A stretch of 64,000 nucleotides of DNA, taken from the NCBI RefSeq assembly GCF_006345805.1, contig NC_043007.1, forward strand, positions 27,218,001-27,282,000, in the 5' to 3' direction. This DNA comes from Octopus sinensis (Eukaryota). Made by a program: the position numbers and the translations under genes. Shown piece after piece: positions 5,156 through 46,604 of the stretch (position 1 is its first letter; every line of letters starts with the position of its first letter). A model generated the notes under the pieces. That model saw only the letters and a program-made list of their open reading frames with translations. It ran no database searches and had not been told where the DNA came from.

Positions 5156-5975
5156 ACAAAGAAGCAGTAATATATTGCTAATATCTTGAGACTGTGAAAC
5201 GAAAGAATATAATGACCATAGCTGTCCCTATATTTCACTGAAAACCTGAATATGGTTTCTAGACGCGCCAAATTAACATACGCGCGCAAAAGCAAACGTT
5301 TCCAAAAATGGGTTTTGATGTTCGAAATTAAACCAGTGTATGACTAGTTATTAGCTCAACAAACAGGAATCCTCTTGTGTTTGCGCCGATATGCTGAAGG
5401 ACGTGGAAAACAAAAAGCCATCATCTCATCGAAGCCCATTTTAATGAAGAAAAACTAGAGCCAACTAACGAACCTTTTATTCAACAGTTCATAGATTACA
5501 AGTAGAATCCAAATATTCTAAAATCTCAAACTATCCTCTTAAAATGAGAGATTCTGAACTTGCTTCTCCTAAATCATAATTTTCATCAAGCTGAACTGAA
5601 ATGCCGTTTAAAAAATCTCAAAGGTATGTAAGGTCTATGGCCAAAGCGGCGCCGATACGTGGTGGTTCGATCGTATAGAAAAAAACTTCCCATAAAATAA
5701 TCCTTTACCGCCGTTGATAAATGCACCGGCCAGTTTATAACTAAATGTTCTAGGTACGTACTAAGAAAAAAACAGGATTGGCATGGCTGGAACTTCGTTG
5801 ATTATCGGTTTACTTTCTCCGAGGCGATTTTGGAACAAATGACAACATATAACATAAAGTGACCATAGACAGATTTCATGTGTTAGGATGGTCATAAATG
5901 GAATGCTTTTGATTAAACATGAATTTATTTGATCAGAGAAGACAACTGGTAGTTATTTCAGCGTGGGTGTCTATA

Positions 5976-6040
<65 letters not shown>

Positions 6041-6059
6041 ATACAAACACATGTGTACG

Positions 6060-6110
<51 letters not shown>

Positions 6111-7499
6111 GTATTTGCAGCTGTTGGCTGGTGGTGTTATCCAGGTATTTCCGGCGATTCTCTTTCCATTTTTTTCCTTTATAAAGTAAATTGACACCCA
6201 CACTGTTTTGTTCAATATTTTCAGTTTAAACATTCATTCCTGTTTCCCTCAAATTCTTCCGTTTCCCCTTCCTCCGTCTCTCTTATCCATCTGGATTGCC
6301 CACCCATTCTAGTTGAAGTTTACAATTCCGGCATTATAAAACCACCGACACAGACGAAAACTATATCGTTTTTAAATATTAATTGATATTCAATTACAAA
6401 TAGAAACCAAAAACAAATATATATAAAGCAATGTTATTTGACTGATTTATCCAATAATAATGAAACAATACCTGATCCAAACACATTGATCTGAATTAAA
6501 CCACTCCATTAGCAACTCAGTAATTAAGACGTATACAATACAGATCGTTAAATCCAAATTAGAAGGGAGAAAAGAAATTGGTTTCTATTCATTCAATAGA
6601 ACGCATTCAGATTACGTTTCACATTTTAAAGACTTTTGAAAATATTATTGAATACAAAACTGCATAAATCTAGAATCGAATCAGCAAATTATATATATAT
6701 ATATATATAATATATATTATATATATATATATAGTGTGTGTGTGTGTGTGTACGTGCGTAAGCATGTGATCTGTTGTATTTATGCGCATGTGCATACATA
6801 CGTTTTAATTTCAATTACTTAAAAACGCCAGTATTGCACACCGGGTTATCACAAAGCTGGGTAAAAAATCACGGGTGTCTCAAATGCAATTCATAATGTA
6901 TTTTTTTGTTTTTATATTCCTAACAGAGTATCATTATTTGCTGGTTATGGCGATTTTGTCTTGCAAATGATACAAATTCTGCCATTAAAAATTTAAGAAC
7001 AGAGGTTCAAATATTTAAAATTTAGTAAAAAGCAGGCCGCAAGATGGTTACATAATAAAACAATAATTCAATATTTTCTATTTTAATTTTAATCCCATTC
7101 TGTTTTTTGGCAGCAGCTAGAGCGGATTACCTTTTAAGCGTGATTTCACATACTGGAAAGGGGCCATTTATTATACAGTAATATTTAAGATCATAAGATG
7201 GCGGCGAGATGACAGAATCGTTAACCCGTTGGACAAAAATTCTTAAAATTTTGAAAGTCTTTTCCGTCTGATTTCACATTCGTCCGTGTTCTGTTTTACG
7301 CTTCCCCATTTCGGGGTCGATGAAATAAGGGTTACCTGATTACTGACCCCGTTTTAATGGCCTCACACGTCCTCCCGAAATTGCTGTCCTTTTGCCAAAT
7401 GTACCAACCAATATTTAGCTCCTAAGATCTCGATTGTTAGCGCAAGTAGTTTTTTTTCTTTTTACCAACTTCAAGATTTTGAGTTAGGAATTCAGACTT

Positions 7500-8072
7500 A
7501 ATTCTTTTCTACTTTGGGCGCAAGGCCCGTAATTTTGGTGGGAGGGGATTAAATCGAGCCAGTACACAACTGCTACTTAATTTATCGACTCCGAAAGGAA
7601 GAAAGGCAAAGTTGACTTCGGGGGAATTTGAACTCAGATCATAAAGCATATGCGAAATACTTATTTCTTGACTGCCCACAAGGGGCTAAACACAGAGAGG
7701 ACAAACAAAGACAGACAAATGGATTAGGTCGATTATATCGACCCCAGTGCGTAACTGGTACTTATTTAATCGACACCGAAAAGATGAAAGGCAAAGTTGA
7801 CCTCGGCGCAATTTGAACTCAGAACGTAATTCCAGACGAAATACATATCTCTTTACTACCTACAAGGGGCTAAACACAGAGAAGACAAACAAAGACAGAC
7901 AAATAGATTAGGTCGATTATATCGACCCCAGTGCGTAACTGGTACTTAATTTATTGACCCCGAAAGGATGTAAGGCAAAGTCGACCTCGGCGGAGTTTGA
8001 ACTCAGAACGTAACGGCAGACGAAATACGGCTACGCATTTCGCCCGGCGTGCTAACGATTCTGCCAGCTCGC
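7500..8072 (-). mobile_element. SINE family C, three tandem units
   Basis: Repeated CTGGTACTTAATTTATCGACCCCGAAAGGATGAAAGGCAAAGTCGACC-like core. Confidence 0.85.
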
Positions 8073-21587: not shown

Positions 21588-22095
21588 TTTTCTACACAAA
21601 GACCGAAATTTTTGGGGGAAGAGGACAGTCGATTAGATCGACCACAGTACGCAACTGGTAATTAATTTATCGACCCCGAAAGGATAAAAGCCAAAGTTGA
21701 CCTCGGCGAAATTGGAAGTCAGAACGTAGCGGCAGACGAAATACCTATTTCTTTATTGCCCACAAGGGGCTAAATACAGAGAGGACAAACAAGGAGAGAC
21801 AATCGGATTAAATCGATTTTATCGACCCCAGTGCGTAACTGGTACTTATTTAATCGACCCCGAAAGGATAAAAGCCAAAGTCGACCTCGGCGAAATTGGA
21901 AGTCAGAACGTAGCGGCAGACGAAATACCTAGTTCTTTATTGCCCACAAGGGGCTAAATACAGAGAGGACAAACAAGGAGAGACAATCGGATTAAATCGA
22001 TTTTATCGACCCCAGTGCGTAACTGGTACTTATTTAATCGACCCCGAAAGGATGAAAGGCAAAGTCGACCTCGGCGGAATTTGAACCCAGAACGT
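21588..22095 (-). mobile_element. SINE family C, three tandem units of about 180 bp
   Basis: 21670-21850 is nearly identical to 21852-22035. Confidence 0.88.
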
Positions 22096-25022: not shown

Positions 25023-25104
25023 TTTAATTAAATGTATGTATGTATGCATGTATGTATGTATGTATGTATGCATGTATGTATGTATGTATGTAAGTGTGTA
25101 TATA

Positions 25105-25580
25105 TGTCATTATTCAGTTTATTTCAAGATTTCTCCCCAATGGAGAAAGAACCGGTTTCTAACCACGATTCAAGGGTCTTTCATTGGAATTTCAACAACA
25201 ACAACAGGGTATTTTTCTATGTATGTATATATGTATGTGTGTATGTATGCATGCATGTATATATGTTGTGTTGTTATGTATGTATGTATGTACGTACGTC
25301 CTTGTTTAGTTTATTTCAAGATTTCTCGCCAATAAAGACAGAACCAGTTTCTAACCATGATTCAAAGCTCCTTCATTGGAATTTCACCATCAACAACAGG
25401 GTATTTTTGTATGTATGTAGGTATCTATGTATGTACGTCTGTGTGTGTGTGTATGTATGTATGTCATTATTCAGTTTATTTCAAGATTTTTTGCCAATAG
25501 AGAAAGAACCGGTTTCTAACCTTGAGTCAAGGCTCCTTCATTGGAATTTCAATATCAACAACAGGGTATTTTTGTTTGTG
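25105..25580. repeat. Three copies of a unit of about 105 bp, each followed by (TATG)n; a fourth copy at 24055-24155
   Basis: TTTATTTCAAGATTTCT..CCGGTTTCTAAC..CATTGGAATTTCAAC..CAACAGGGTATTTT repeated. Confidence 0.85.
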
Positions 25581-25721
25581 TGTATGTATGTGCAGATTTG
25601 TATGTTTTATGCATGTATTCTGATGCATATAGTTGCATTTCTAGACATGCGCATATGCATTTAAATAACAAATTTCTGACATACATACATGCATACACAC
25701 ATACATACACACATACATGCA

Positions 25722-32669: not shown

Positions 32670-32742
32670 ACGGTTACTGATGAAGATTTGCCTAGCAAAT
32701 TATTTTATTTGCTGAAGAAATCTGAAACCTAGATATAACCGT
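32670..32742 (+). ncRNA. Type I hammerhead ribozyme, solitary, one stem III mismatch
   Basis: ACGGTTA/TAACCGT stem I (7 bp); CTGATGA 32677-83; stem II AGATTT..TAGCAAAT/ATTTGCTG..AAATCT; GAAA 32724-27; CCTAGA (near-palindrome of CCTAGG); TA 32734-35. Confidence 0.8.
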
Positions 32743-34106
32743 AATAAAATAAAAAGGTAAAAGTTTTTATTTTTCATTCCCTTCCAAAATTGCTCTTAAA
32801 TGTGGTTTTGATCGTTTTTACTGCTTCTTCTAGCGTGTAAAAATTAGCTGTTAAGGGTAGTTTTCTCTTGTGTTTAAATGTACAATATTTTATATTGAGA
32901 ATATGTTGTCTATTGACTTTTTATACGTGTTAGACCACTGGTGGGGAAAATGTCTAAAAATATTCGCCATCCTATATATTTTACGAATATGTACGTGTGT
33001 ATGTCGGTACGTTCGGTCCATAGCAATAATAGAAAACAGCCATCTAAGGTACCACGCAGTGAGTCTGAACCCAGAACCATATGGCTGAGAAGCAAGTTTC
33101 TTACCACACGCCCACACCTGCGCCTGTTAGATAACATTCGTGTAACTTCTTTGCTCAAACCCTGCCTACGCAGGATTTTCTCTAGTTCTAGATGCTTCCC
33201 AGAGCGATAAAACAAGTATCAGATAAGTACTGCGCTGGATATAGTCGATATTTCCATTGACAGCAGTGGTCCTGGCGCTATATAGCCATAATCCAGTGAT
33301 TGAAACCAGAGAAGTCTCAAACGTAAAAACAAAAAAAAAATCAGAGAAAAATACCAAAAAATAAAACAGATATGAACAATTGTTGAGAGGACATCACGTA
33401 ACATTGTGTTGATCAGAAATCGAAAATACATCCGGCATACAGTATTGACGAGAAATGTTCTATCGTTAAATCCGAGACGTTTGTATTAAGGGGAGAAGAT
33501 AAGAAACGAGTAAATAAAGTTCTCTCAAACAACGATGGGGTTCAGTTTCGTCTTATTTTACGCCATTTTTTTCTTCATATTTTCGGGAAACTGATATGGT
33601 TTCATGAAAAGAACGATATATTTGTAGGTAGAAATCAATAGAAAGTTTCATCGTATACTACGTATCTTCTGTTTTAAGGTTAGATACGCTGTGTTATGCA
33701 TAAATGCATACATATGTGTACCACACAGGCTTGTGAAAAATGTAAACCTCTCACGCACAAGATCTCAACGGCAGACAAAATCTCAGTGAACGGCCTACGT
33801 TTAATTGTTTCCCTGTACGTACGCATGCTTGTGTGAGGTTCTGAGCGTGTGTGTGTGTGTGTGTGTGGTGTGTGGTGTGTGTGTGTGAATGTGTGTGAGT
33901 GTGTGTTAATATGTGCGTGTTTGTGAGTATTTAAATGTGTGTGAATGTGTGTGAGAGAATGTGTATGAATATGTGTGTGCGTTTGTGTATGTAAATGTTT
34001 ATGTAAGTGTGTGTCTAAATGTGTGTGAATGTGTGTCAGTGTGTGTGAATGTGTGCGTGTGTGTACGTGCGTGTTTGTGCGTGTGTGTGAGTATGTTTGA
34101 ACGTGT

Positions 34107-35030
34107 GTGAATGTGTGTGTATTTATGTGAATGTGTGTGTATTTATTTGAATGTGTGTGTATTTATGTGAATGTGTGTGTATTTATTTGAATGTGTGTGT
34201 ATTTATGTGAATGTGTGTGTATTTATTTGAATGTGTGTGTATTTATGTGAATGTGTGTGTATTTATTTGAATGTGTGTGTATTTATGTGAATGTGTGTGT
34301 ATTTATTTGAATGTGTGTGTATTTATGTGAATGTGTGTGTATTTATGTGAATGTGTGTGTATTTATTTGAATGTGTGTGTGTATTTATTTGAATGTGTGT
34401 GTATTTATTGAATGTGTGTGTATTTATTTAAATGTGTGTGAATGTGTGTGTATTATGTGAATGTGTGTGTATTTATTGAATGTGTGTGTATTTATGTGAA
34501 TGTGTGTGTATTTATTTGAATGTGTGTGTATTTATGTGAATGGTGTGTATTTATGTGAATGTGTGTGTATTTATTTGAATGTGTGTGTATTTATGTGAAT
34601 GTGTGTGTATTATTTGAATGTGTGTGCATTTATGTGAATGTGTGTGTATTATGTGAATGGTGTGTATTTATTTGAATGTGTGTGTATTTATGTGAATGTG
34701 TGTGTATTATTGAATGTGTGTGGTATTTATTTGAATGTGTGTGTATTTATTTGAATGTGTGTGTATTTATTTGAATGTGTGTGTATTTATGTGAATGTGT
34801 GTGTATTTATTTGAATGTGTGTGTATTTATGTGAATGTGTGTGTATTTATTTGAATGTGTGTGTATTTATGTGAATGTGTGTGTATTTATTTGAATGTGT
34901 GTGTATTTATTTGAATGTGTGTGTATTTATTTGAATGTGTGTGTATTTATGTGAATCTGTGTGTATTTATTTGAATGTGTGTGTATTTATTTGAATGTGT
35001 GTGTATTTATGTGGATGTGTGTGTGAATGT
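34107..35030. repeat. 20-bp minisatellite TGAATGTGTGTGTATTTAT(G/T), about 45 copies
   Basis: Directly visible; grades into degenerate (TG)n on both sides. Confidence 0.95.
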
Positions 35031-40893: not shown

Positions 40894-41386
40894 CGTATGT
40901 ATGTGTATATGTATACATGTTTTTGTATTTTTTGTATACCTATATCTCAATATATGCGTCATTATATTTGTATACATACATACACACACACACATGTCTG
41001 TTTTCTACCGGTTTTATGGACAGTACCAAGCATATATATTTTATATTTTGGATAATAAAAACATATCATAGCTTTGATCTTCAGAAGCGTTACATATTTT
41101 CAGATGTCTACGAGCTGTTTTACAATCCCCCATGGATAAATATTCCAATTCCTCTATCCACGGTGAAGCCGTAAATCGGATATTTCTTTTATATATATAT
41201 ATATTATATATATATATATATATATAATATATATATATTATATATATATCTGTGACACAATCGTTTCATTCACAAATTTGAATTCGGTGATACTAGTTGA
41301 GGATTCTAGCTCGCTCTGATACTGAGTTGAGTTGGTACCTCCTAGTATCTCAAAATTCAATATATAATCATTTATGATTATAGTAT

Positions 41387-41493
41387 TCCACGCTGAAGAG
41401 AAAAGAAGTTTCGGTAAGATAGAATTATTTAATATTTAATATTTTAATTCTTATGCTTTCCTAAAACTTGATTTCGAAACGTACGTCCGTGGA
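41387..41493 (+). ncRNA. Type I hammerhead ribozyme, array copy 1
   Basis: Stem I TCCACG(41387-92)/CGTGGA(41488-93); core CTGAAGA 41393-99; stem II GAAA..AAGTTT..AGAATTA / TAATTCT..AAACTT..TTTC (41400-41475); GAAA 41476-79; stem III C-GTAC-G (palindromic ACGTACGT); triplet GTC, predicted cut after 41487. Confidence 0.92.
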
Positions 41494-41986
41494 TAACTTT
41501 AAAAATGTTTGATAGATTGCGGTAATTCATTCTCTCTTACCTGTTTGTGTCAGCCTTCCAATTGCTGTTTTTACTGAGATCTCCCTTTTTAGTAGAAGAA
41601 ATAGCTATAACCCTTTGACTGCTATTTCTAAATTCGGTATGTGGTAAGGCAATTCGTTGCTGAACCCTTATTGCTTAGTATTACTTAAATTTTCCTCAAA
41701 TGAGGCTTTTACATGCCGAAGACTACTTGGTGTAATTGATAATTATTCCAAATTAATTAATTTCACCCTTCATTATTACGGATAACCATATTTTATCTCA
41801 GTAGATGACCACAGCATCTTGTTTTGGCTACACGCGGGTGGGAAGGGGCTGTTGACACAATCGTTTCATTCACAAATTTGAATTCGGTGATACTAGTTGA
41901 GGATTCTAGCTCGCTCTGATACTGAGTTGAGTTGGTACCTCCTAGTATCTCAAAATTCAATATATAATCATTTATGATTATAGTAT

Positions 41987-42093
41987 TCCACGCTGAAGAG
42001 AAAAGAAGTTTCGGTAAGATAGAATTATTTAATATTTAATATTTTAATTCTTATGCTTTCCTAAAACTTGATTTCGAAACGTACGTCCGTGGA
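41987..42093 (+). ncRNA. Hammerhead ribozyme, array copy 2
   Basis: Same as copy 1; CTGAAGA at 41993, cut after 42087. Confidence 0.92.
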
Positions 42094-42587
42094 TAACTTT
42101 AAAAATGTTTGATAGATTGCGGTTAATTCATTCTCTCTTACCTGTTTGTGTCAGCCTTCCAATTGCTGTTTTTACTGAGATCTCCCTTTTTAGTAGAAGA
42201 AATAGCTATAACCCTTTGACTGCTATTTCTAAATTCGGTATGTGGTAAGGCAATTCGTTGCTGAACCCTTATTGCTTAGTATTACTTAAATTTTCCTCAA
42301 ATGAGGCTTTTACATGCCGAAGACTACTTGGTGTAATTGATAATTATTCCAAATTAATTAATTTCACCCTTCATTATTACGGATAACCATATTTTATCTC
42401 AGTAGATGACCACAGCATCTTGTTTTGGCTACACGCGGGTGGGAAGGGGCTGTTGACACAATCGTTTCATTCACAAATTTGAATTCGGTGATACTAGTTG
42501 AGGATTCTAGCTCGCTCTGATACTGAGTTGAGTTGGTACCTCCTAGTATCTCAAAATTCAATATATAATCATTTATGATTATAGTAT

Positions 42588-42694
42588 TCCACGCTGAAGA
42601 GAAAAGAAGTTTCGGTAAGATAGAATTATTTAATATTTAATATTTTAATTCTTATGCTTTCCTAAAACTTGATTTCGAAACGTACGTCCGTGGA
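42588..42694 (+). ncRNA. Hammerhead ribozyme, array copy 3
   Basis: Same as copy 1; CTGAAGA at 42594, cut after 42688. Confidence 0.92.
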
Positions 42695-43187
42695 TAACTT
42701 TAAAAATGTTTGATAGATTGCGGTTAATTCATTCTCTCTTACCTGTTTGTGTCAGCCTTCCAATTGCTGTTTTTACTGAGATCTCCTTTTTAGTAGAAGA
42801 AATAGCTATAACCCTTTGACTGCTATTTCTAAATTCGGTATGTGGTAAGGCAATTCGTTGCTGAACCCTTATTGCTTAGTATTACTTAAATTTTCCTCAA
42901 ATGAGGCTTTTACATGCCGAAGACTACTTGGTGTAATTGATAATTATTCCAAATTAATTAATTTCACCCTTCATTATTACGGATAACCATATTTTATCTC
43001 AGTAGATGACCACAGCATCTTGTTTTGGCTACACGCGGGTGGGAAGGGGCTGTTGACACAATCGTTTCATTCACAAATTTGAATTCGGTGATACTAGTTG
43101 AGGATTCTAGCTCGCTCTGATACTGAGTTGAGTTGGTACCTCCTAGTATCTCAAAATTCAATATATAATCATTTATGATTATAGTAT

Positions 43188-43294
43188 TCCACGCTGAAGA
43201 GAAAAGAAGTTTCGGTAAGATAGAATTATTTAATATTTAATATTTTAATTCTTATGCTTTCCTAAAACTTGATTTCGAAACGTACGTCCGTGGA
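43188..43294 (+). ncRNA. Hammerhead ribozyme, array copy 4
   Basis: Same as copy 1; CTGAAGA at 43194, cut after 43288. Confidence 0.92.
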
Positions 43295-43786
43295 TAACTT
43301 TAAAAATGTTTGATAGATTGCGGTAATTCATTCTCTCTTACCTGTTTGTGTCAGCCTTCCAATTGCTGTTTTTACTGAGATCTCCCTTTTTAGTAGAAGA
43401 AATAGCTATAACCTTTGACTGCTATTTCTAAATTCGGTATGTGGTAAGGCAATTCGTTGCTGAACCCTTATTGCTTAGTATTACTTAAATTTTCCTCAAA
43501 TGAGGCTTTTACATGCCGAAGACTACTTGGTGTAATTGATAATTATTCCAAATTAATTAATTTCACCCTTCATTATTACGGATAACCATATTTTATCTCA
43601 GTAGATGACCACAGCATCTTGTTTTGGCTACACGCGGGTGGGAAGGGGCTGTTGACACAATCGTTTCATTCACAAATTTGAATTCGGTGATACTAGTTGA
43701 GGATTCTAGCTCGCTCTGATACTGAGTTGAGTTGGTACCTCCTAGTATCTCAAAATTCAATATATAATCATTTATGATTATAGTAT

Positions 43787-43893
43787 TCCACGCTGAAGAG
43801 AAAAGAAGTTTCGGTAAGATAGAATTATTTAATATTTAATATTTTAATTCTTATGCTTTCCTAAAACTTGATTTCGAAACGTACGTCCGTGGA
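43787..43893 (+). ncRNA. Hammerhead ribozyme, array copy 5
   Basis: Same as copy 1; CTGAAGA at 43793, cut after 43887. Confidence 0.92.
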
Positions 43894-44386
43894 TAACTTT
43901 AAAAATGTTTGATAGATTGCGGTTAATTCATTCTCTCTTACCTGTTTGTGTCAGCCTTCCAATTGCTGTTTTTACTGAGATCTCCCTTTTTAGTAGAAGA
44001 AATAGCTATAACCTTTGACTGCTATTTCTAAATTCGGTATGTGGTAAGGCAATTCGTTGCTGAACCCTTATTGCTTAGTATTACTTAAATTTTCCTCAAA
44101 TGAGGCTTTTACATGCCGAAGACTACTTGGTGTAATTGATAATTATTCCAAATTAATTAATTTCACCCTTCATTATTACGGATAACCATATTTTATCTCA
44201 GTAGATGACCACAGCATCTTGTTTTGGCTACACGCGGGTGGGAAGGGGCTGTTGACACAATCGTTTCATTCACAAATTTGAATTCGGTGATACTAGTTGA
44301 GGATTCTAGCTCGCTCTGATACTGAGTTGAGTTGGTACCTCCTAGTATCTCAAAATTCAATATATAATCATTTATGATTATAGTAT

Positions 44387-44493
44387 TCCACGCTGAAGAG
44401 AAAAGAAGTTTCGGTAAGATAGAATTATTTAATATTTAATATTTTAATTCTTATGCTTTCCTAAAACTTGATTTCGAAACGTACGTCCGTGGA
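44387..44493 (+). ncRNA. Hammerhead ribozyme, array copy 6
   Basis: Same as copy 1; CTGAAGA at 44393, cut after 44487. Confidence 0.92.
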
Positions 44494-44986
44494 TAACTTT
44501 AAAAATGTTTGATAGATTGCGGTTAATTCATTCTCTCTTACCTGTTTGTGTCAGCCTTCCAATTGCTGTTTTACTGAGATCTCCCTTTTTAGTAGAAGAA
44601 ATAGCTATAACCCTTTGACTGCTATTTCTAAATTCGGTATGTGGTAAGGCAATTCGTTGCTGAACCCTTATTGCTTAGTATTACTTAAATTTTCCTCAAA
44701 TGAGGCTTTTACATGCCGAAGACTACTTGGTGTAATTGATAATTATTCCAAATTAATTAATTTCACCCTTCATTATTACGGATAACCATATTTTATCTCA
44801 GTAGATGACCACAGCATCTTGTTTTGGCTACACGCGGGTGGGAAGGGGCTGTTGACACAATCGTTTCATTCACAAATTTGAATTCGGTGATACTAGTTGA
44901 GGATTCTAGCTCGCTCTGATACTGAGTTGAGTTGGTACCTCCTAGTATCTCAAAATTCAATATATAATCATTTATGATTATAGTAT

Positions 44987-45093
44987 TCCACGCTGAAGAG
45001 AAAAGAAGTTTCGGTAAGATAGAATTATTTAATATTTAATATTTTAATTCTTATGCTTTCCTAAAACTTGATTTCGAAACGTACGTCCGTGGA
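44987..45093 (+). ncRNA. Hammerhead ribozyme, array copy 7
   Basis: Same as copy 1; CTGAAGA at 44993, cut after 45087. Confidence 0.92.
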
Positions 45094-45586
45094 TAACTTT
45101 AAAAATGTTTGATAGATTGCGGTTAATTCATTCTCTCTTACCTGTTTGTGTCAGCCTTCCAATTGCTGTTTTTACTGAGATCTCCCTTTTTAGTAGAAGA
45201 AATAGCTATAACCTTTGACTGCTATTTCTAAATTCGGTATGTGGTAAGGCAATTCGTTGCTGAACCCTTATTGCTTAGTATTACTTAAATTTTCCTCAAA
45301 TGAGGCTTTTACATGCCGAAGACTACTTGGTGTAATTGATAATTATTCCAAATTAATTAATTTCACCCTTCATTATTACGGATAACCATATTTTATCTCA
45401 GTAGATGACCACAGCATCTTGTTTTGGCTACACGCGGGTGGGAAGGGGCTGTTGACACAATCGTTTCATTCACAAATTTGAATTCGGTGATACTAGTTGA
45501 GGATTCTAGCTCGCTCTGATACTGAGTTGAGTTGGTACCTCCTAGTATCTCAAAATTCAATATATAATCATTTATGATTATAGTAT

Positions 45587-45693
45587 TCCACGCTGAAGAG
45601 AAAAGAAGTTTCGGTAAGATAGAATTATTTAATATTTAATATTTTAATTCTTATGCTTTCCTAAAACTTGATTTCGAAACGTACGTCCGTGGA
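45587..45693 (+). ncRNA. Hammerhead ribozyme, array copy 8
   Basis: Same as copy 1; CTGAAGA at 45593, cut after 45687. Confidence 0.92.
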
Positions 45694-46186
45694 TAACTTT
45701 AAAAATGTTTGATAGATTGCGGTTAATTCATTCTCTCTTACCTGTTTGTGTCAGCCTTCCAATTGCTGTTTTACTGAGATCTCCCTTTTTAGTAGAAGAA
45801 ATAGCTATAACCCTTTGACTGCTATTTCTAAATTCGGTATGTGGTAAGGCAATTCGTTGCTGAACCCTTATTGCTTAGTATTACTTAAATTTTCCTCAAA
45901 TGAGGCTTTTACATGCCGAAGACTACTTGGTGTAATTGATAATTATTCCAAATTAATTAATTTCACCCTTCATTATTACGGATAACCATATTTTATCTCA
46001 GTAGATGACCACAGCATCTTGTTTTGGCTACACGCGGGTGGGAAGGGGCTGTTGACACAATCGTTTCATTCACAAATTTGAATTCGGTGATACTAGTTGA
46101 GGATTCTAGCTCGCTCTGATACTGAGTTGAGTTGGTACCTCCTAGTATCTCAAAATTCAATATATAATCATTTATGATTATAGTAT

Positions 46187-46293
46187 TCCACGCTGAAGAG
46201 AAAAGAAGTTTCGGTAAGATAGAATTATTTAATATTTAATATTTTAATTCTTATGCTTTCCTAAAACTTGATTTCGAAACGTACGTCCGTGGA
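46187..46293 (+). ncRNA. Hammerhead ribozyme, array copy 9 (in the final partial unit)
   Basis: Same as copy 1; CTGAAGA at 46193, cut after 46287. Confidence 0.92.
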
Positions 46294-46604
46294 TAACTTT
46301 AAAAATGTTGATAGATTGCGGTTAATTCATTCTCTCTTACCTGTTTGTGTCAGCCTTCCAATTGCTGTTTTTACTGAGATCTCCCTTTTTAGTAGAAGAA
46401 ATAGCTATAACCCTTTGACTGCTATTTCTAAATTCGGTATGTGGTAAGGCAATTCGTTGCTGAACCCTTATTGCTTAGTATATATATATATATATATTTT
46501 ACTTACATTTAGCCAATGAGTCCGGCTACAGGCCTCGATAACTACTAAATTTTTTTCTAATTTTTCATGATATTATTTTTGTAAATTTTCAATATTCCAC
46601 ATAC

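Follow-up and report, generated by a model that had tools for sequence, protein, structure and literature searches.

Our analysis of a 64,000-nucleotide (nt) stretch of the Octopus sinensis genome (contig NC_043007.1, positions 27,218,001 to 27,282,000 of the forward strand; this whole stretch is "the window" below, and its first letter is position 1) centers on a tandem array of hammerhead ribozyme units that is one insertion of a young, dispersed retrozyme family of the type without long terminal repeats (non-LTR). The family is probably non-autonomous and moved in trans by a Penelope-like element (PLE) that targets TA and bears an endonuclease; the reverse transcriptase of this element would roll round a circle of the retrozyme RNA. 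The class itself is already known, and a retrozyme-PLE link was proposed earlier, with terminal-repeat homology in Xenopus (here and below, statements on published work refer to the portions of the papers covered); the new part is the insertion ends. The most informative feature is the pattern of array ends across loci, with its Penelope tail and inversion signature, which a sequence-only reading of the window had missed.

How animal retrozymes spread is an open question. Reverse transcription of RNA circles by PLEs has long been proposed on the basis of shared ribozymes, co-occurrence and terminal-repeat homology, and a 2020 review states that retrozyme repeats show no conserved motif indicating a helper element (PMC7761336). 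The young octopus family supplies an insertion-level footprint of PLE machinery, exact predicted starts and the sequence of the target; with the two candidate enzymes that this genome holds intact, the hypothesis becomes open to a direct in vitro test. Neither a cephalopod retrozyme family nor an analysis of retrozyme insertion junctions was found in the literature outside subscription papers and supplements, and the words ribozyme and retrozyme are missing from the main text, as far as covered, of a 2026 octopus repeat annotation. No host function is suggested for the family.

Insertion ends across the family

The array contains 8.71 head-to-tail units (41250/41253 to 46479/46481) with (TA)n on both flanks, and the longest stop-to-stop frame of the unit is 80 amino acids. 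The sequence-only reading had described about 8.7 non-coding units carrying nine full type I hammerheads on the + strand, cut at about 600-nt spacing from 41487 to 46287, and this description holds: all nine cores are complete, and the nine cut sites (all of them sequence-predicted positions) lie where it had placed them. The eight cut-to-cut monomers are 600, 601, 600, 599, 600, 600, 600 and 600 nt long and differ only in four homopolymer-length columns. Its remark that 600 nt is long for an animal retrozyme was overstated, since published consensus units run from 51 to 972 bp, with a mean of 650 bp in ray-finned fish (Li et al. 2026, bioRxiv 10.64898/2026.07.22.740005). No frame with reverse transcriptase and GIY-YIG domains is present in the array or the 64-kb window, no LTR arrangement was seen around the unit (no search aimed at a primer-binding site or polypurine tract was made), and target-site duplications are unreadable inside the (TA)n flanks. 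Tandem Repeats Finder missed the array because its period limit is 500.

The dispersed copies that the same reading had expected are abundant. An exact 18-nt motif from the 3' part of the ribozyme occurs 1,257 times genome-wide and its stem I variant 820 times, a total of 2,077 exact copies in two subfamilies, and the reversed control of each occurs 0 times. A search of the 2.72-Gb genome with the monomer gave 249 matches at the best 29 of 1,458 candidates, and the 150 matches listed are 97–100% identical to it. We examined 66 loci: the 29 best-matching ones (window included), the 28 not yet included among the 30 that the 18-nt motif listing has on contig C1, and nine picked from the stem I-variant list, in which inverted or multi-unit loci were favoured. 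Because loci were chosen by similarity or motif, short fragments that have no ribozyme are under-sampled and long arrays over-sampled.

The 3' ends of the insertions are strikingly fixed. Unit positions are numbered from 42088, at the predicted cut site; on this scale, of the 86 3' ends of arms visible in the first 57 loci, 55 fall at 190–206 (site A) and 28 at 284–316 (site B), so that 83 form two clusters about 192 and 295 nt past the cut site, and the other three are at 156, 244 and 274. A (TA)n run adjoins 85 of the 86, and the 5' ends are distributed uniformly over the unit (p=0.53). Where a one-armed insertion has a visible end, this end is at A in 28 of 32 cases, the window's array among them. 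In all 27 inverted insertions of the first 57 loci the arms point outward, and in every one of them one end is at or before 206 and the other at or after 244 (strict A and B bins in 20; A/A or B/B in none). The same rule is kept by 6 of 8 further inversions that belong to a third subfamily, so that 33 of 35 inversions overall combine one earlier and one later end.

Sites A and B recur in each unit of the array, and each lies about 10–15 nt beyond the base of a predicted hairpin. A comparable hairpin is found upstream of the ends in two other array families (described below). An unpaired CUU follows the hairpin at the B sites and at site A of the second family; at site A of the first and third families the CUU stretch is paired in the local fold. 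Microhomology alone is insufficient to account for the end sites, because the longest TA-like run of the unit (474–480) is never an insertion end. Four public runs were compared with the unit. Contigs filed under three organism labels cover it and bridge the unit junction (bridging contigs are also expected from tandem DNA, and an RNA origin of these is a guess), and loose ends into TA at 42282, 42385 and 42392 are listed at the same places in two runs.

The retrozyme loci display PLE insertion hallmarks: fixed 3' ends, variable 5' truncation, a 5' inverted copy and a one-ended tail. If sites A and B are indeed starts of reverse transcription, the roughly 100 nt between them would correspond to the Penelope tail, although at that length, and at about 125 nt in a second array family, it is outside the 30–40 bp given for PLEs. 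The genome has two young PLE families with intact reverse transcriptase and GIY-YIG frames (781 and 775–777 codons), in both of which the ends adjoin (TA)n and occur at two places about 32 nt from each other; 20 loci of the second were fetched, and the five inverted ones all have one end per arm. The retrozyme end motifs bear a weak resemblance to both families, and the retrozyme hairpin is not clearly seen in local folds of the PLE ends. Since 150 of the 5,029 GIY-YIG candidates were scored, the partner may also be another PLE.

This second young family of hammerhead arrays (unit of 534 nt; 1,715 exact motif copies against 1 for the control; L096:6397-7513 and L162-L172) follows the same pattern, with two TA-joined ends near 160 and 287 and one site per arm in all ten inverted loci among the 13 (nine independent, one insertion being duplicated). 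Its matches to the PLE ends proved to be AT-rich low complexity.

The ribozyme and the template of the arms

Each of the nine hammerheads consists of a stem I of 6 bp, the core CUGAAGA, a stem II of 76 nt, GAAA and a GUC cut site, and a 2-bp stem III capped by a palindromic GUAC loop. The segment with stem III forms an 8-nt palindrome, two copies of which can pair with each other at -9.8 kcal/mol, and cleavage of dimeric hammerheads through such an arrangement of stem III has been described by Cervera and de la Pena 2014. The suggested check with the Rfam Hammerhead_1 model came out in part: a scan of 10 kb returned no hammerhead, only low-complexity microRNA-like and other chance matches, and a 161-nt scan at copy 2 aligned model positions 1–45 at 21.6 bits (E=0.0034), under the gathering score of 34, with the long stem II treated as an insert. 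The minus strand of the array has no type I hammerhead and no Rfam ribozyme. The predicted monomer RNA is strongly self-paired, and branched rather than rod-like (z=-8.1, with 0 of 20 shuffles as good; minus strand z=-4.3), and the isolated 131-nt ribozyme region is of modest stability (z=-1.7). An array with ribozymes is not a product of chance, given this monomer z-score and 1,257 genome-wide motifs against none for the reversed control.

Stem I pairing is preserved across the subfamilies, in agreement with the earlier assignment to a non-LTR retrozyme type. Among 289 ribozyme copies the variable stem I pair is C-G in 179, U-G in 66, U-A in 29 and C-A in 0, the remaining 15 being rare single variants that are mostly indel-shifted; these counts tally one evolutionary path many times, yet pairing was kept at each step. 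This covariation suggests that the ribozyme is of importance to the lineage. A predicted pair is broken by 10 of the 56 recurrent alleles (8 after compensation), where 18.0 would be expected (P=0.002), and no recurrent allele lies in the core or stem III, in a sample of 66 loci of which 37 had been chosen by the 3' motif. When 19 units were folded jointly with RNAalifold, a two-sided change appeared in 1 of 184 pairs and the covariation term was near zero, which is uninformative because the copies are too alike. A check for A-to-I editing in the 56 unpolarised recurrent alleles gave A>G 14, C>T 12, T>C 6 and G>A 5.

The arms span 0.1–14.6 units in a continuous distribution, and both arms of an inversion can be multi-unit (for example 10.4+8.9, 6.5+3.3 and 3.6+4.8 units). 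Long arms need a circle or an uncleaved multimer as template, because a cleaved linear monomer yields at most about 195 or 295 nt. Divergence is 0.19% within arrays versus 1.37% between them, with 17 haplotypes in 28 arrays, and locus-specific changes may occupy a whole array across both arms (A344G in 13/13 units, T85C in 11/11 and G355A in 9/9). These whole-array changes and the homogeneity imply a monomer bottleneck followed by amplification, and a rolling circle would supply both in one step. A count of 11 "private" variants was set aside, since A14T is a gap-masking artefact (2/15) and A579G and A496G also occur in another locus. Arm haplotypes were tested in 34 inverted loci, of which 27 have at least 8 shared variant sites; the arms are identical at those sites in 25 of the 27, where foreign arms would be expected to give 3.8, and differ at one site in the other two. 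A single haplotype is therefore copied by both arms, from the same circle or from sibling RNAs.

Proposed mechanism and alternatives

The course of events that we propose would begin with transcription of the + strand of an array. The RNA would be cleaved at GUC, probably as dimers through the palindromic stem III (the complete core and conserved stem I point this way), to give monomers of about 600 nt, and host ligase would close these into circles as it does in published retrozymes. A PLE protein would then nick a (TA)n target and start reverse transcription inside the RNA at A (~192) or B (~295), a step whose genomic footprint is seen in the insertion ends, and would make 0.1–14.6 laps round the circle before a random stop, as array length and homogeneity suggest. 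In inverted insertions, whose footprint is likewise seen, the two target strands would prime at different sites on one template haplotype, and the two cDNAs would be joined head to head. The window's array would be a one-armed product begun at A. More tentatively, and with somewhat less than even confidence, we suggest that one PLE protein dimer holds a single RNA circle at two hairpin-plus-CUU starts about 100 nt apart, each subunit priming from one nicked (TA)n strand and both rolling by strand displacement. The rule of one site per strand in inversions bears on the unexplained tandem and inverted structure of PLEs; if true, the single-circle arrangement would mean that target-primed reverse transcription by rolling circle has left its record in the genome, would account for the inverted repeats that PLEs have in general and for their one-sided tail, and would specify a portable RNA signal through which a circular RNA is mobilised in trans.

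Several observations weigh against the circle-templated mechanism. What the loci show is a genomic footprint; cleavage, circle and transcript are predicted. For a PLE in vitro, uncleaved RNA was the principal substrate (Frangieh et al. 2024, PMC11167929), and 1 of 9 Xenopus retrozyme dimers was cleaved in the experiments of Li et al. 2026. Stem III is missing from the predicted fold of the 131-nt ribozyme region, and with a 76-nt stem II there is no evident canonical contact of loop 1 with loop 2. The retrozyme unit has no homology to either resident PLE family (no match to a PLE body; best E 0.17), and its tail is about 100 nt versus 32 nt in both. Two of the 35 inversions are exceptions to the end rule, with site A used twice in L196 and an end near position 70 in L198. 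Arm concordance also fits sibling RNAs of one source locus, or conversion between arms. Mosaic arrays exist (L052, with T421C in 6/10 units and A496G in 6/11, and L036_37, with T167C in 12/15), and 7 of 100 minority variants recur in at least two arrays. Polishing of the assembly may smooth arrays, and assembly error together with polishing could account for the mosaics and shared minority variants, or hide more.

It is unlikely, in our judgement, that the same PLE machinery and starts act on an uncleaved linear multimeric transcript of a long source array, with circles as by-products. Such a template would explain the fixed ends, inversions and arm concordance equally well, and would fit the mosaic arrays, the seven shared minority variants, the in vitro finding that a PLE used mainly unprocessed RNA, with ribozyme cleavage dispensable (Frangieh et al. 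2024), and the near-identity across loci of the youngest copies of the second PLE family, which have a CCGAAGA core. However, internal starts and 5' truncation can only shorten arrays in each generation, yet arms reach 13–14.6 units; a change in one unit cannot reach all units without a monomer bottleneck, and whole-array variants are common; and the stem I covariation suggests that the ribozyme is important for the lineage.

Very unlikely is the minisatellite route discussed as a model by Li et al. 2026, in which a PLE inserts just over one unit and the locus then expands by unequal crossover or slippage. Expansion of this kind yields homogeneous, locus-specific arrays, but arrays that are 97–100% identical to other loci already contain up to 14 units, arm lengths are continuous from 0.1 to 14.6 units, multi-unit arms on both sides of an inversion would need two separate expansions, and a starting insertion above one unit must already cross the cut site. 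We give hardly any credence to an artefact of the assembly (reads that fold back, tandem copy numbers that are inflated) or to a passive satellite whose motif is ribozyme-like by chance: the unit differences are mainly homopolymer indels, typical of noisy long reads, and the Rfam score is below threshold, but inverted arms that differ in ends, lengths and flanks nevertheless follow the two-site rule, there are 2,077 exact motif copies and zero in controls, stem I covaries, and separate public contigs have the same ends. An integrated viroid-like or satellite RNA that replicates from RNA to RNA, its genomic copies being incidental captures, is just as improbable, for although the predicted 600-nt circle is strongly paired, non-coding and hammerhead-bearing, the minus strand has no comparable ribozyme, the fold is not rod-like, and the thousands of genomic copies have PLE-type ends.

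Other repeats and comparison with known systems

Features of the array in the window (the window's coordinates; the strand of the junction runs was not assigned)
Feature	Position	Strand	Remarks
5'-junction (TA)n run	41190..41249	not assigned	target microsatellite
Whole insertion	41250..46481	+	8.71 units; variable 5' end at ~363-367 of the unit; fixed 3' end = site A
Hammerhead copy 1	41387..41493	+	cut after GUC at 41487
Hammerhead copy 2	41987..42093	+	cut after 42087
Reference monomer	42088..42688	+	cut site to cut site; 601 nt, 34% GC
Site A in unit 2	42236..42286	+	hairpin, then commonest insertion end ~192 (window 42279); putative reverse transcription start 1
Site B in unit 2	42330..42387	+	hairpin closed by GGUG/CACC, CUU, then second insertion end ~287-300; putative start 2
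Hammerhead copy 3	42588..42694	+	cut after 42688
Hammerhead copy 4	43188..43294	+	cut after 43288
Hammerhead copy 5	43787..43893	+	cut after 43887
Hammerhead copy 6	44387..44493	+	cut after 44487
Hammerhead copy 7	44987..45093	+	cut after 45087
Hammerhead copy 8	45587..45693	+	cut after 45687
Hammerhead copy 9	46187..46293	+	cut after 46287
3'-junction (TA)n run	46480..46497	not assigned	array stops at site A of unit 9

Many hammerhead or retrozyme-like families seem to be present in the genome. At C1:95520800-95548700 about 4 kb separate a 19-unit inverted array of the main family from one of the second family's long arrays. A third, older tandem family (unit about 580 nt; L113-L132, for example L119:1250-2800) is 62–70% like the unit over positions 25–300, and its hammerhead-like motif has an apparent U3-A8 core variant, as in the first PLE family. 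Further fragments with a long stem II or similar end motifs are found at L096:845-930, at L100 near 6916, at L112 near 9411 and at L085:2600-2875. In the window itself, the + strand of 32671-32742 has a solo type I hammerhead of another, older repeat family, with a 7-bp stem I, a long stem II, a palindromic CUAG loop and one mismatch in stem III; all 40 scored candidates match it, the others at 87–91% identity, and some are tandem at a spacing of about 460–580 nt. Three of four generic hammerhead matches elsewhere in the window were not hammerhead-like on inspection.

The two PLE families have peculiarities of their own. In the first (L093:1174-2613, L097 and L100) an upstream frame of about 479 codons overlaps the reverse transcriptase frame in a two-frame layout, and the second may have a similar upstream region. 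The copy at L093:1-1130 and 5936-7070 is a tandem whose unit of about 5.9 kb includes about 1.1 kb of unrelated flank with a further hammerhead-like motif, which suggests that neighbouring sequence was co-mobilised. In the second family (L173-L192) the youngest copies, which are near-identical across many loci, have a CCGAAGA core versus CUGAAGA in older ones, and may have spread with a weakened ribozyme.

The window also contains two short tandems (7547-8028 and 21629-22095) of a 184-nt SINE-like repeat, which may resemble the short interspersed elements (SINEs) of octopuses, a repeat of about 165–192 nt interspersed with TATG runs (25032-25664), and a GT-rich minisatellite with 20/40/60-nt periods (33850-35024).

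Judged by its sequence, the array family is a non-LTR retrozyme. Like the metazoan members of this class (Cervera and de la Pena 2020, PMC7229834; Li et al. 2026), it is a non-coding tandem with one type I hammerhead per unit, a GC content below 50% and a self-paired predicted circle, its stem III has 2 bp and a tetraloop, its multimers are dispersed and co-occur with PLEs, and its unit is within 51–972 bp. Its stem II of 76 nt, on the other hand, compares with a canonical 4 bp, or 7–8 bp in PLE minimal motifs (PMC4209133), and its unit is longer than the 170–400 nt of invertebrate retrozymes. Circular RNA expression has been demonstrated for metazoan retrozymes, whereas the octopus family is known from DNA. 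Insertion strictly at (TA)n, internal ends fixed at two sites and inverted arrays were not met with in the portions of PMC7229834 and Li et al. 2026 covered here.

PLEs have hallmarks of unexplained origin, namely 5' truncation, partial tandems, a 5' inverted copy and a one-ended tail of 30–40 bp (Craig et al. 2021, PMC8557442). In vitro, a PLE protein, for which a dimer is predicted, cuts a nick in each strand of AT-rich DNA and extends both; its two start sites are internal to the RNA and mark the limits of the tail, and cleavage by the ribozyme is not required (Frangieh et al. 2024). The octopus retrozyme resembles Neptune/Nematis-type PLEs in its 5' truncation, head-to-tail tandems, inverted 5' copy, one-ended tail, AT-rich or microsatellite target and two putative internal starts downstream of a type I hammerhead; it differs from them in having no open frame and a tail of about 100 rather than 30–40 nt. 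Non-autonomous Chlamys PLEs such as MRC1 are likewise non-coding and form multicopy head-to-tail insertions that are ascribed to PLE machinery; in general their 3' end is similar to that of the autonomous partner, and hammerheads are absent from most Chlamys elements (Craig et al. 2021). In the octopus family, by contrast, every unit has a hammerhead and 3' similarity is limited to a short motif. A further difference from PLEs is that no homology was detected between the unit and the terminal repeats in either of the two resident PLE families examined. In the twin priming of L1 elements both target strands prime cDNA, giving an inversion whose arms are non-overlapping parts of one linear RNA. 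The octopus insertions resemble these in that priming on both target strands would lead to inversion; unlike L1 products, they have arms whose starts are no more than about 100 nt apart and which share many units of overlap.

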